From assembly GCA_965199685.1 (NCBI GenBank), contig OZ241323.1:801940-865939 (forward strand): a DNA stretch of 64,000 nucleotides, read 5' to 3'. Shown here piece after piece: positions 1,241-29,539 of this stretch. The position numbers and the translations under genes were made by a program. The stretch's first letter is position 1. Each line of letters opens with the position of its first letter. The notes beneath the pieces are model-generated. The model was given only the letters and a program-made list of their open reading frames with translations, was not told the DNA's origin and ran no database searches. This DNA is from an uncultured candidatus Porisulfidus sp. GTDB lineage: Bacteria; Pseudomonadota; Gammaproteobacteria; Poriferisulfidales; Oxydemutatoraceae.

Positions 1241-4200
1241 ATGAACCAGTTTGTACATTTACATTTGCACACCGAATACTCTATTCAAGATAGTGTATTG
1301 CGTATACCTGCGCTTTTTGAAAAAGCCAAAGCCATGCAATTCCCGGCGGTTGCAATAAGCGATGTCAATAATCTTTTTGCAGTAATCAAGTTTTATACCC
1401 AGGCACTAGAACATGGGATAAAGCCGATTATTGGCTGCGAATTATCTATACACGCAGATGCCATTGCACCTGCCGGCGATCAATGCGTTGTTTTATGTCT
1501 GAATGAACGAGGTTACCGCAATCTAACACGCTTGGTTTCAACCGCTTATCTAGAAAATCATCAAGACGCAGAGGTCGCAGTGAGGCGTGAGGATTTAGAA
1601 CATTACAACGAAGGTTTATTGGTACTCTCAGGTGCATTACGAGGTGCGCTCGCACGGGCGTTATTGCAAGACGAATCGCCACAAGTGGATCGGTTAGTGG
1701 AGTTTTGGACTTCGGTATTCAAGGATCGTTTTTATGTAGAGATCCAATATACCCAGAGAGAAAACGAGAGCGATTATGTAGCAAAAGCGATTAAGTTGGC
1801 AAGACGGATGGCGTTGCCAGTGGTTGCAAGCAACGATGTATGTTTCCTGAACAAAGAGGATTTTGATTCGCATGAAATTAAGGTTTGTATTGCTGAAGGT
1901 CGTACTCTGAACGATAAACATCGCCAACAAGGTGTATACAGTCCCGAACAATATCTTAAAAGTGCCGACGAGATGATGGCAACATTCAAAGATATACCAA
2001 GTGCGATACGAAACAGTGTAGAAATAGCAAAACGTTGTAGCGTAGAACTTCAATTAGGGCAAACACACTTGCCGTCTTTTCCCATAGAAGCGGATCTTGG
2101 TGTAGAAGATAAGCTAAGACACGATGCCAGTGTGGGTTTGAAGGACTACTTGGATAAAAATAGCGACTTGGATCAAGCCGCATATACCGAACGTTTGGAA
2201 GCAGAACTGAAAGTAATTAGTGAGATGGGTTATGAAGGCTATTTTTTGATCGTTGCTGATTTTATTCTATGGGCCAAGCGCAACGATATTCCAGTCGGTC
2301 CGGGACGAGGTTCGGGAGCAGGGTCTTTGGTTGCTCATGCGTTGGGGATTACTGAGATAGATCCTCTGAAATATGGTTTGTTTTTTGAGCGTTTTCTGAA
2401 TCTTGACCGCATATCGTTGCCGGATTTTGATGTTGATTTTTGTATAGAGGGTCGTGATCGCGTCATCCAATATGTAGTCGAGCGATACGGGCAAGATAAT
2501 GTCGGTCAGATTATTACTTTCGGCAGTCTGGGGGCTAAGGCGGCGATACGCGATGTGACTCGCGTGCTCGGCTATGCCTACGGTTTAGGAGACGATATCG
2601 TCAAACTGATACCGTCGCGTTTGAACATCAAACTAGGCGAAGCACTTATAGAATCTCCTGAGTTAAAAGAACGTTACGATAGTGAGGCAAGGGTCAAAAG
2701 GGTGTTTGATAATGCTCTGAAGATAGAGGGTTTGGTTAGAAATGTCGGCCAACACGCCGGTGGTATAGTCATCGCGCCTGCCCCACTGACCGATTACACT
2801 TCGTTGTATAAAGAAGCCGATCATCAAAATGCCGCAACGCATTTTGATATGAAAGATATAGAAAAAGTGGGCTTGGTGAAGTTTGATTTTCTAGGGCTTA
2901 AAACCTTGACCATTATCAACAAAACTTTGGCAAACCTTGAGCATCGCGGTATTTCGATTCCCGAAATCTCACAAATACCATTGGACGACTCTAAGACCTA
3001 CGACTTATTGAAAAATGCCGAAACGACCGCATTGTTTCAACTGGAATCGGATGGCATGCGTCGCTTAATTAGAAAACTAGAACCCGATCAATTTGAGGAT
3101 ATCGTAGCCCTTGTTGCACTCTATCGTCCCGGTCCATTGAAAGCTGGCATGGGCGACAGTTATGCAAACCGTAAGCACGGTGAGGAATTTGAATACCAGC
3201 ATCCGATATTGAAGCCGATATTGAGTAACAGCTACGGGGTCATTTTGTATCAAGAGCAGGTTATGCAAATTGCACAAGAACTCGCCGGTTATACTCTGGG
3301 CAGAGCTGATATCCTGCGCCGTGCAATGGGTAAGAAAGACCCTGAGGAGATGGCAAGTCAGCGAGCAATTTTTGTAGACGGTGCTATGGCAAACGGTGTG
3401 GCTCGCGGGGTTGCGACTAAACTTTTTGATCTGATAGAACATTTTGCCGGTTATGGATTCAATAAATCACATTCGGTTGCTTATGCACTCGTAGCCTATC
3501 AAACCGCTTGGCTTAAAAGCAATTATAGCGGTGCTTTTATGGCGGCAGTATTAACATTGGATATGTCGGATACCGACAAAATCATAGATTTGTTGAGTGA
3601 GTGCCGCAACTTGGGGTTGACGATAGTGCCGCCCGATATCAACTGCTCGGACTACGAGTTTAGGGAAATAGAAGAAGGGAAGATACTTTACGGCTTGGGT
3701 GCAATACGCCAAGTCGGTTATGAGATGATCAAGGCTATCGTAGACGAACGCAAAGCGCAAGGAGACTATCAATCGTTGGCAGATTTTTGCCGTCGCCTAG
3801 TGCCGAAACTCAGGACTAACATGATTGAACCGCTAATATCGGTCGGTGCCTTTGATAAGATCGAATCTGATAGAGCCTCGGCACTGCAATCTTTGGAAAA
3901 TGTCTATGATCTGGCAGAGAAAACTTTCCGTGATAACGAAACAGGTCAAGCCAGTATCTTTGGCGAGGCGCATACTTCATATACTGCCTCCGAAACACTT
4001 GATAAAGTTACCGGAACTATGACCGAAGCGCAACTATTAGAAAAAGAAAAAAACAGTTTGGGTTTTTATCTGACCGCACATCCTATTTCTCAGTGTAGCG
4101 ACAAGATAAAAAACATCGTTGATTATCAAAGCCTCAGCGACTTCAAGCAATCAATCAGAACATCCAAGCACGACGAAAAAGAAGCGGTTTGGCTTGCTGG

Positions 4201-27816: not shown

Positions 27817-27860
27817 CGGGTGTACCTTGGTCGGGCATAATGATAAAATAAGCAATCAAT

Positions 27861-29116
27861 GGGAATTATATACCATTCTGCACAAAGCTATAATAAAATA
27901 AACCAATGAAAGCAAACAGAACAATCTGCTACCACTTATACCCAGCGACTTATAGAAAGCACCAGCAATTACATGGCACTGCCGGAGCGTGTCGGCATGT
28001 GTGGAATCATTTTGTGGGAAAGTTAAAAGACGAATACGAGTACTATGGGGAAAGCAAGTTTAAGTACTATACGCTGTGTCCTCAATTCACTACTTTGCGA
28101 AAGTATAGTCGTACCTGGTTGCAGGATTATTCAGCTAATATCGTAAAGATGTCATTAAAACCAATAGAGACAGCCTATAAAGGCTACTTTAAGGGAATAT
28201 GCGGATTACCAAAGTTTCACGGAAAATACACATACAATCCGTCATTTCCTATAGATAAGGAAACTGCAAAAATATCTGGTGAGCATATATACATTCAGAA
28301 AATAGGCTGGATTAAGTTTGCTGGTAGCGACAAATATAAAGGTGAGAAGTTTGTATCAGGTCAGGTCAAATATGAGTGTGGTAACTGGTATGCTTATATT
28401 GTCTATGAGATAGAAGTATCAGAAAAACCACAGTTTCTAACGACAGTAGGGCTGGATAGAAACTGCGGTCAGGTTGCTTTATCAGACGGCACTATTCATC
28501 ACGGGCCAGACATTCAGAAAAAGATAGTGAAGCGAAAGCGTTATCAACGGAAGTATGCAAGAGGGAAGCAAGGGAGTAATAGGCAAAAAGTTGCTAAGTA
28601 CAAACTGCAGAAAGCCTACAAAGCGGAGCGTAATGCAGGAGCTAACTGGTATCATCAAACCAGCAAGTTAATCGCAGACAAGTATGATGTTGTGTATATA
28701 GAAGAGTTGAAAACCAAAAGCATGACGAAGTCAGCAAAGGGAACGATAACAACTCCTGGCACAAATGTAAAGCAGAAAGCAGGTTTGAATAGGTCAATCC
28801 TAGCAAGCAGTTGGTATAAGCTAGAACAATGCTTGTCCTACAAAGCCCATGTAGAGAAAGTGCCAGCACACTACACCAGCCAAACCTGTGATAAGTGCAG
28901 CAACGTAGATAAAGCAAACCGCAAGACCCAATCAATTTTCAAGTGTCAACAATGTGGACACGAGGACAATGCAGATGTGAATGCTGCATTAAACATTTTG
29001 GCGGCTGGGAATACCGCAACTGGACGTGGAGATGGCGACATTAGTCGGTCTGTGAAGCGTCAAAAAATAGCAAGTAAAGCACGGAGCTTATCTGTGCAGA
29101 ATTGTATATAATTCCC
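27861..29116 (+). mobile_element. tnpB-only insertion element bounded by 23-bp terminal inverted repeats (GGGAATTATATAC[C/A]ATTCTGCAC) and flanked by an 8-bp direct repeat CAATCAAT (27853-27860 and 29117-29124)
   Basis: Left TIR 27861-27883; the reverse complement of the right end 29094-29116 matches it 22/23; identical 8-mers abut both ends. Confidence 0.7.
27906..29111 (+). CDS. tnpB: TnpB (IS200/IS605 OrfB family RNA-guided nuclease)
   Basis: N-terminus ICYHLYPATY..CRHVWNHF; RuvC-I GLDRN, RuvC-II YIEEL, zinc finger CDKC..CQQC, RuvC-III NADVNAALNI. Confidence 0.85.
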   Translation: MKANRTICYHLYPATYRKHQQLHGTAGACRHVWNHFVGKLKDEYEYYGESKFKYYTLCPQFTTLRKYSRTWLQDYSANIVKMSLKPIETAYKGYFKGICGLPKFHGKYTYNPSFPIDKETAKISGEHIYIQKIGWIKFAGSDKYKGEKFVSGQVKYECGNWYAYIVYEIEVSEKPQFLTTVGLDRNCGQVALSDGTIHHGPDIQKKIVKRKRYQRKYARGKQGSNRQKVAKYKLQKAYKAERNAGANWYHQTSKLIADKYDVVYIEELKTKSMTKSAKGTITTPGTNVKQKAGLNRSILASSWYKLEQCLSYKAHVEKVPAHYTSQTCDKCSNVDKANRKTQSIFKCQQCGHEDNADVNAALNILAAGNTATGRGDGDISRSVKRQKIASKARSLSVQNCI

Positions 29117-29203
29117 CAATCAATCGTAGTCGTGTTGAAAGATGTATTATAGACTAATCACACCACATTTATATAAAATACGAAGCTAAACAAGGAGAAA
29201 TCT

Positions 29204-29539
29204 ATGGAAATTCAAATATCTGGACAAGGTTTTGACGTTACAAAACCTATAGAAACCCATATCAATGAAAAGTTAAAGAAAATACGCAAACATTTTGACC
29301 ATTTAGTGAAAGTACACGTTGTATTAAAGATAGAGAAAAATTCTCATATTGCAGAGATCGCCGTGCATACTAGCCACCATGATTTTTTTGTTAATGCCGA
29401 ATCTGACGATATGTACACAACGGTGGATAGGCTTATTCCCAAGCTCGATCGCCAAATAATCAAACACAAAGAAAAATTAAGAGATCATCGCTCCAGAGAA
29501 GTTGTGCATCACAACATTAAATCTAAAAAACAGCAATGA
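29204..29539 (+). CDS. hpf: Ribosome hibernation promoting factor
   Basis: 111 aa; S30AE family (MEIQISGQGFDVT). Confidence 0.85.
   Translation: MEIQISGQGFDVTKPIETHINEKLKKIRKHFDHLVKVHVVLKIEKNSHIAEIAVHTSHHDFFVNAESDDMYTTVDRLIPKLDRQIIKHKEKLRDHRSREVVHHNIKSKKQQ

Follow-up and report, generated by a model that had tools for sequence, protein, structure and literature searches.

Annotation routinely classes solo tnpB genes as accessory to IS200/IS605, with a presumed dependence on a Y1 or serine TnpA, and the locus described here raises the question of what moves such a gene when it is bounded by long inverted repeats and a short direct repeat. The stretch analyzed, hereafter the window, comprised 64,000 nucleotides of contig OZ241323.1 (assembly GCA_965199685.1) from an uncultured Candidatus Porisulfidus sp. 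It contains an element of 1,256 bp (1.26 kb; 27861-29116), with tnpB as its sole gene, that sits between kdsC (minus strand) and hpf (plus strand). An earlier note, made from the sequence alone, had proposed a tnpB cargo mobilized in trans by a DDE transposase, or an undescribed association. Our analysis gives good support, with a probability of about 0.9, to the reading of this element as a non-autonomous cassette of the IS1595 family that carries an apparently functional OMEGA module, formed by tnpB and the predicted guide-RNA scaffold overlapping it.

Ends of the element and their IS1595 counterparts

The repeat search gave one outstanding inverted pair, formed by GGGAATTATATACCATTCTGCACA on the left and TGTGCAGAATTGTATATAATTCCC on the right, of 24 nt and with 23/24 positions complementary. 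These repeats had been given in the earlier note as 23 bp with 22/23 identical; the observation itself was confirmed. The repeat 23-mer appeared in the 64 kb at these two sites only, with up to 3 mismatches allowed, and none of 100 shuffles contained any match. Both repeat tips were adjoined by CAATCAAT. This 8-mer is not rare by itself (11 copies in the window vs. 5.2 expected), so an independent test with empty sites was needed.

Such sites were present in two contigs (L199 and L200), found through KdsC homologues 95-96% identical, where kdsC and hpf lie side by side in divergent orientation, separated by a spacer of 121-123 bp; the same spacer measures 1,387 bp in the window, that is, 123 + 1,256 + 8. 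After removal of the element and of one repeat copy, the window aligned end to end with both contigs. At the precise junction, each of them presented one CAATCAAT, not two (…GATAAAATAAG·CAATCAAT·CGTAATCG…), and their empty kdsC-hpf spacers contained no remnant of the terminal repeats. Because two close relatives hold a single copy at the exact insertion point, the CAATCAAT repeat is a true 8-bp target-site duplication (TSD) and a pre-existing repeat is ruled out; the earlier note had interpreted it in this way and had named the kdsC-hpf junction as the place to check. A duplication of 8 bp is also that of the IS1595 family. The insertion was polymorphic among close relatives, with flanks ~90% identical.

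Inside the element, 21 nt separated the left repeat from the ATG of tnpB, and the stop codon (TAA, 29109-29111) lay within the right repeat, which overlapped the last tnpB codons as noted before. This layout excluded any room for IS605-type ends or subterminal hairpins. No tnpA gene was detectable within the 64-kb window, also in accordance with the earlier observation.

The same ends were found at many other loci. In those fetched around TnpB relatives, tnpB was always bounded by repeats starting GGGAATTATA; the inner part of the repeat differed between clades, with both arms changing in step, and the outer 8 bp varied from site to site and were usually perfect (AATGTTAT, AATGAGTG, ATAAATTA, TTACGGAG, C/TTATATAG, and ACTT(T/C)GGC). 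Altogether, more than 25 independent insertions displayed these ends together with an 8-bp duplication specific to each site. Relatives of TnpB with 50-90% identity were numerous, several of them often listed the same long contig, and many genomes held several diverged copies of the TnpB element at different sites; proteins recorded on many contigs mostly represented one locus in several samples. A clean duplication was absent in some TnpB copies (L003, L073, L121, and L190).

When the reference genomes were scanned for GGGAATTATAYA-N6-T-NN-ACA, a degenerate form of the end, at least 119 loci were obtained, and a scan of viral contigs added 52 more. Ends of the type GGGAATTATATA… occurred on transposase-bearing, TnpB-only and miniature elements in many genomes, and inverted pairs with perfect 8-bp duplications enclosed from 118 bp to 4.4 kb. 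A recurring open reading frame (ORF) of 310-325 amino acids beside one end matched DDE_Tnp_IS1595 (PF12762; E = 1e-38 to 1e-43) and the IS1595 zinc ribbon (PF12760), and its relatives are named 'IS1595 family transposase' at NCBI. The end pattern was common to the window element and to the IS1595-transposase elements L029, L084, L087, L110, L112, and others. Among these, L029 was a plain insertion sequence (IS) of 1,276 bp with a perfect duplication, and L087 (2350-4965), L110 (337-3144) and L112 (4994-7524) combined the transposase with an N6/N4 DNA methylase passenger between perfect 8-bp duplications, the methylase of L112 being fused to an HNH nuclease domain. As for the subgroup, GGGAATTAT fits what we take to be the ISNwi1 end consensus of the ISfinder table (ggnnatTAT), an assignment that is provisional.

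TnpB-only pairs were obtained from Rhodothermales (L021), Caldilineaceae (L022, L073, and L121), Poriferihabitaceae (L114), Nitrosopumilaceae (L024) and Cenarchaeum (L075). Archaeal TnpB-only elements with GGGAATTATATA ends and 8-bp duplications occupied positions 71-1536 in L024 and 3159-5076 in L075, and were also found in L031, L069, and L086. Miniature elements of 120-240 bp without any ORF (L002 7336-7577, L078 5522-5747, L102 2779-2938, L104 3177-3416, L030 5430-5588, and L033 3523-3680) are further non-autonomous members of the family. Similar cassettes were distributed over at least four bacterial phyla plus Nitrosopumilaceae/Cenarchaeum archaea, mostly in sponge-associated genomes, and the presence of the same ends in bacteria and archaea from such genomes suggests a cross-domain spread within one habitat. 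The host genomes in the scan mostly looked sponge-associated (Porisulfidus, Poriferihabitaceae, Cenarchaeum, and Caldilineaceae).

A link between TnpB-only and transposase-bearing elements was seen in related genomes. An intact transposase-methylase element from a Candidatus Oxydemutator genome (L087; duplication ATCAGAAA) had an end, GGGAATTATATACTTAAATCTACA, that matched the right end of the TnpB-only L196 without difference over 24 nt and closely resembled that of the L002 miniature element. The transposase relative P0299 and the TnpB-only copies P0014 and P0019 all have a contig of 2,369,097 bp, an Oxydemutatoraceae chromosome, listed as their longest. In addition, L004 (Ca. Porisulfidus) held a second IS1595-type element (1762-3942), with a transposase fragment (1762-2132) and a Dam-type methylase (2171-3097), that ended 13 bp before the start of its TnpB element at 3956. 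The ends held in common with IS1595-transposase elements, together with the 24-nt identity between L087 and L196, indicated that the window element belongs to the IS1595 family as a non-autonomous cassette. The Zn_ribbon_IS1595 plus DDE_Tnp_IS1595 transposase is encoded by its siblings and not by the window element, which hence qualifies solely as a non-autonomous derivative.

Mobilization in trans by an IS1595-family transposase is strongly suggested by the shared ends, and a cognate partner would be expected in this organism. On this central point the proposal of the earlier note gained support, and the further copies and transposase-bearing partner that it had anticipated were found in other genomes, the partner type being a DDE transposase of the IS1595 family. 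A metagenome scan with the TnpB protein gave four distant loci and no new IS1595-type insertions, a plasmid collection gave IS605-type TnpBs only (≤35% identity), and exact-protein look-ups of the window TnpB and Hpf returned no record.

TnpB, predicted guide RNA and flanking motif

The only long ORF inside the element matched HTH_OrfB_IS605 (PF12323), OrfB_IS605 (PF01385) and Cas12f1-like_TNB (PF07282) in Pfam, and residues 3-376 of its product aligned with the solved ISDra2 TnpB (8bf8/8exa/8h1j). The RuvC residues D184, E266, and D357 and the two CxxC pairs (328-331 and 347-350) were conserved with respect to ISDra2 TnpB, so that the protein has the architecture of a TnpB, with the intact RuvC motifs and zinc finger already read from the sequence. 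The ORF was uninterrupted, and to judge from these residues TnpB looks catalytically competent.

The IS1595-bounded TnpBs did not constitute one tight clade, and at least three to four very divergent lineages occurred in such shells. The window clade scored 196 bits against L124, a TnpB at 36% identity that lacks IS1595 ends and lies at the edge of the associated branch, and 60-100 bits against other IS1595-bounded TnpBs. This closer relationship to L124 pointed to several entries of tnpB into IS1595 shells or to a very old association. In four very divergent lineages the ORF ended at the same repeat-encoded TAA (…TGT ATA TAA TTCCC), and at least 62 of the 120 closest homologues ended in I or T, as a layout with a repeat-encoded stop predicts.

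For the RNA comparison, the last ~220 nt of 11 gammaproteobacterial elements were used, which aligned with long stretches free of variation even where protein identity was only 55%. The RNAalifold consensus fold comprised six helices and 40 pairs (Table 1); 96.6% of cells were paired and 13 pairs displayed two-sided changes, a figure reached in 0 of 500 shuffles, and pairing fell to 28-45% when the partners were slid by 1-3 columns. The proportion of identical codons at identical residues was 0.41-0.62 along most of the gene, whereas the final 47 codons, located mostly outside the right repeat, gave 0.70, 0.85, and 0.91; this synonymous-site test is independent of the fold alignment. In the window, the scaffold would span 28897-29095 and then run through the repeat to 29116, close to the 28900-29116 expected for the omega-RNA in the earlier note. 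We thus predict a conserved structured RNA at the 3' end of tnpB, which would end at the repeat tip like an omega-RNA. A scaffold that stops at 29116 would place the first guide nucleotide at 29117 (CAATCAATCGTAGTCG…). By analogy with the IS200/IS605 layout, in which the guide comes from the DNA immediately past the end on the tnpB 3' side, this guide would consist of the duplication plus adjoining host DNA; its length of 16 nt was assumed from ISDra2.

If the guide is formed by the duplication and the right flank, the target-adjacent motif (TAM) of the empty site would lie in the 5 nt to the left of the duplication. These positions were surveyed in 13 TnpB elements with intact duplications (ATAAG, GGATG, TAGAG, GGATA, ATGTA, TGGTG, ATACG, TATAG, CGGTG, GCAAG, GCAAG, ATATG, and TAGTT), and a bias toward R-W-G was found, with G at -1 in 10/13, A or T at -2 in 12/13, and a purine at -3 in 12/13. 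Transposase-type elements had G at -1 in 6 of their 26 flanks (Fisher, P = 0.002), and the mirror position had it in 2 of 13 cases (P = 0.005); these values come from n = 13 insertions with several TnpB lineages pooled and are uncorrected for ~24 position-by-base tests. This orientation-specific motif could be a TAM, and we treated it as a lead. A symmetric target preference of the DDE transposase was considered as its cause and rejected, since the mirror position lacked the complementary bias and such asymmetry argues against it; a Shine-Dalgarno explanation of the purine-rich motif was also discarded, the distance to the downstream start codon being too long in most cases.

About 14 of 16 TnpB elements were followed at a short distance (0-166 nt, mostly <100) by a host gene in the same orientation, among them hpf, lysS, serS, alr, rnt, secE, and manC (loci including window 29117-29204, L002, L003, L128, L190, L195, and L196). 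Several were within conserved operons (prfB-lysS, dnaB-alr, and tufA-secE), and in L003 the ATG of serS followed directly after the repeat tip. This co-orientation could reflect selection for tolerated insertions or a link to the read-out of the guide RNA.

Proposed mechanism and rival explanations

The best full explanation, which we consider quite probable, is that of an IS1595 mobile insertion cassette (MIC) with the OMEGA module as its only cargo, mobilized in trans and with a homing role for the guide. In the ISfinder/Chandler literature, MICs and miniature inverted-repeat transposable elements (MITEs) are non-autonomous derivatives of DDE insertion sequences, and the window element displays what defines a MIC, namely IS-family ends, a duplication, at least one passenger gene and no transposase. 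Its insertion between kdsC and hpf duplicated 8 bp of the target. An IS1595-family transposase made by siblings that share these terminal repeats would presumably cut out and paste the element, whose outward-running transcripts would include a guide derived from the duplication and the adjoining host DNA. The most likely role of this guide, as shown for IS605/IS607 TnpBs, would be the cutting of locus copies without the element, and recombination of the cut copy with the occupied one would restore or spread it. The bases just to the left of the duplication may serve as TAM, this being the least certain step.

Several results weigh against this explanation, in addition to the small pooled sample behind the R-W-G motif. 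No IS1595 transposase was detectable anywhere within the 64-kb window, no transposase-bearing element with the exact inner repeat of the window element (CCATTCTGCAC) was found in the sample, and none of the sampled IS1595-type elements held transposase and TnpB together. The scaffold structure was taken from the same alignment that tested it, a search of Rfam over the element and its surroundings produced no meaningful hit, and the 3' region of the window element, folded singly, had an energy no better than that of shuffles (z = -0.09), so that the support for the RNA comes only from the comparative evidence. To our knowledge, the mechanism of IS1595 transposition has not been biochemically characterized. 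Moreover, cut-and-paste excision already leaves a double-strand break, and the benefit of TnpB for a DDE element is not obvious (PMC13565253).

The element might instead be a dead relic, that is, an old immobile IS1595-type cassette whose TnpB is decaying or is kept by the host, for instance for TldR-like regulation of the downstream gene. This is unlikely. One full copy and one solo end in 64 kb with no transposase would be compatible with a relic, as would the copies without a clean duplication and the position of most elements upstream of a co-oriented gene, whose 5' region is often covered by the predicted guide; the co-orientation could also arise if, in compact genomes, insertions obstructing essential genes are selected against. 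However, the insertion is polymorphic among close relatives, its repeats are intact at 23/24 positions, its ORF is uninterrupted, and several diverged copies, each at its own site, are present in many genomes. The RuvC triad is likewise intact, whereas the known domesticated TnpB regulators are reportedly nuclease-dead (Wiegand et al., 2024).

A nested composite, in which an IS605-type tnpB element inserted into a pre-existing IS1595-derived miniature element, is very improbable as the present structure and may perhaps account for how the lineage arose. Miniature elements bearing these ends do exist (as in L002, L078, and L102), and tnpB must have entered somehow into shells that house at least three to four very divergent TnpB lineages. 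In every lineage examined, however, tnpB fills the shell from ~20-130 nt past the left repeat to a stop in the right repeat, no inner IS605 ends or target motifs are visible, and the TnpB C-terminus and predicted RNA scaffold form one fused, co-evolving unit with the right repeat. Finally, an ordinary tnpB-only IS200/IS605 element (IS1341 type), moved by a Y1 TnpA and with merely incidental repeats, is hardly tenable: Pfam and PDB matches do place the protein in the TnpB family usual on IS200/IS605, and annotation pipelines call such genes IS200/IS605 accessory proteins, but the 24-nt terminal inverted repeat (TIR) is far beyond chance, reappears at the ends of relatives with different flanks and leaves no space for subterminal hairpins, the duplication is proven by empty sites, no tnpA was detectable in the window, and IS200/IS605 elements have neither TIRs nor TSDs (PMC13565253).

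Beyond the cassette reading preferred here, a wider scenario can be proposed, which we regard as doubtful at present: OMEGA modules would have repeatedly colonized IS1595-type shells in bacteria and archaea, with the scaffold fused to the transposase-binding end, as a homing or retention device of a DDE cut-and-paste transposon, with its TAM in the host DNA just to the left of the duplication. If so, RNA-guided homing would not be confined to the scarless IS605/IS607 transposition, a sizeable share of the 'solo IS200/IS605 TnpBs' in databases would really be IS1595-family cassettes, and the R-W-G motif and the strong preference for sites just ahead of co-oriented genes would be traces of TnpB at work.

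Known systems and further features of the window

Altae-Tran et al. (2023, PNAS; PMC10691335) describe six DDE-associated TnpB branches (DDE-1 to DDE-6) with inverted terminal repeats, report solo TnpBs whose ends are also those of transposase-bearing elements, and propose their mobilization in trans. IS630 is named there as a DDE partner family, and ISL2 and IS1031 are named in a 2026 review (PMC13565253). IS1595 is mentioned as a TnpB partner neither in the text of that paper available to us nor in the review, and no paper that describes the link emerged when the literature was searched for TnpB together with IS1595, IS1016, ISXO2, or Merlin. The 'undescribed association' of the earlier note was consequently too wide as regards the general idea, already present in the 2023 paper, and apparently holds for the IS1595 pairing in the literature searched; the principle of a DDE-linked, trans-mobilized TnpB has been known since 2023 and the pairing with IS1595 appears to be new. 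The window element resembles the DDE-1 to DDE-6 branches in having TnpB in a transposon with symmetrical inverted ends and the tnpB 3' end near the transposon end. In those branches, by contrast, transposase and tnpB share one element, which was never the case in the sampled IS1595-type elements, and in the window both the ORF and the predicted RNA scaffold run into the repeat itself. A strict separation of transposase and TnpB in different elements would explain why neighborhood-based surveys would miss the pairing.

Members of the IS1595 family (Siguier et al., 2009, as summarized in PMC8101967) present 8-bp duplications, a transposase with zinc finger and DDE_Tnp_IS1595 domain and, in some cases, passenger genes, and the related Merlin elements have GG termini. 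The window element agrees with them in its 8-bp duplication and in its inverted repeats starting GG, and its sibling elements in the zinc finger plus DDE_Tnp_IS1595 transposase and in the DNA-methylase passengers of L087, L110, and L112; it differs in lacking the transposase and in having an RNA-guided nuclease as passenger. With MICs and MITEs it shares IS ends, duplication, absence of transposase and dependence on siblings, and MITEs with the same ends coexist with it; its cargo, however, is not an arbitrary host gene but a mobile-element module (OMEGA) thought to promote retention and fused to one end.

IS200/IS605 elements carry subterminal hairpins, lack TIRs and TSDs, and insert beside a fixed motif of 4-5 nt that doubles as TAM (PMC13565253, section 5.1), and IS607 elements have a serine-recombinase TnpA and neither TIRs nor TSDs (section 5.2). 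The window element resembles the IS1341 group of IS200/IS605 and ISDra2 in its protein family, in the intact RuvC and zinc finger, in having tnpB as sole gene and in a predicted scaffold that overlaps the ORF 3' end. In contrast, it has TIRs and a TSD, no hairpin ends, no such fixed insertion motif and no tnpA, which places it outside IS200/IS605; the TIRs, the TSD and the lack of tnpA also separate it from IS607. Fanzor1 proteins occur as passengers in several superfamilies of eukaryotic DDE transposons, including non-autonomous copies (Bao and Jurka, 2013; PMC3627910). They share with the window element the condition of a TnpB homologue as passenger in a transposon with TIRs and TSD, whereas their hosts are eukaryotic or viral and the proteins only distantly related; PMC3627910 makes no mention of Merlin, which is the relative of IS1595 in eukaryotes.

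In the present case a whole lineage of solo tnpB genes lies on IS1595-type ends. 'Solo' tnpB genes are thus not always IS200/IS605 relics, and one DDE family is added to the few known carriers of TnpB. The locus offers a compact natural system in which a single end would be at once transposase site, end of the coding region and end of the guide-RNA scaffold, and a concrete case for testing whether RNA-guided homing benefits cut-and-paste transposons, which has been doubted in recent reviews. Ends of the form GGGAATTATA…TATAATTCCC with an 8-bp duplication could be used as an annotation screen for reclassification.

Table 1. Position in the window of the features of the tnpB element, with the basis of each assignment.
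Feature	Position	Strand	Basis
Candidate TAM position, ATAAG	27848-27852	+	5 nt directly 5' of the left duplication; inferred
8-bp TSD, left copy, CAATCAAT	27853-27860	.	Single copy at the same point in the L199/L200 empty sites
Left TIR, IS1595-type end, GGGAATTATATACCATTCTGCACA	27861-27884	+	Repeat search
tnpB, 401 aa	27906-29111	+	Pfam and alignment with ISDra2 TnpB structure
Predicted omega-RNA scaffold	28897-29116	+	RNAalifold on 11 relatives; overlaps tnpB 3' end and runs through right repeat
Predicted scaffold helices, first three	28897-28901/29091-29095; 28938-28949/28955-28966; 28968-28974/28984-28990	+	RNAalifold
Predicted scaffold helices, other three	29001-29007/29012-29017; 29023-29027/29057-29061; 29030-29039/29044-29051	+	RNAalifold
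Right TIR, TGTGCAGAATTGTATATAATTCCC (as read on +)	29093-29116	-	Encodes last TnpB codons (…N C I stop)
8-bp TSD, right copy, CAATCAAT	29117-29124	.	Empty sites
Predicted omega-RNA guide, CAATCAATCGTAGTCG	29117-29132	+	Duplication plus adjoining host DNA upstream of hpf; inferred from IS200/IS605 layout

Both termini of the element contained TATAAT-TCCC (29107-29112 on the plus strand and 27865-27870 on the minus strand), that is, a perfect -10 hexamer facing outward at 4 nt from the tip, which at the right end overlaps the tnpB stop codon. From their sequence, these hexamers could drive transcription into the neighboring genes. A simple sigma-70 scan gave no promoter upstream of tnpB, the sole candidate being a perfect TATAAT at 27889-27894 without a -35 box. 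Within tnpB, CCCAATCAAT at 28927-28936 equals the right junction (29115-29124), and the duplication 8-mer is thus also present inside the element; it was rejected as a meaningful copy, as it corresponds to coding sequence conserved in relatives (…QSIF…), and the identity is most likely due to chance.

A solo left end of the same transposon family was found at 166-196 of the window (GGGAATTATATAGGTAACTTGACAAGCTAATG), of a subtype seen in L002. No partner end was present within 6 kb, and no TnpB or transposase remnant adjoined it; it probably represents a truncated second insertion. The DNA just after this end (~200-440) belonged to a different family of small dispersed repeats, common to related genomes and also found in L200 (1329-2580), L199 (724-796 and 4143-4214) and L002 (676-963 and 6747-7156). 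In L200 it formed a tandem array with a period of 168 bp beside kdsC, and positions 347-380 of the window contained a 17-bp tandem duplication (ATTGTACAGAGCCATAA).

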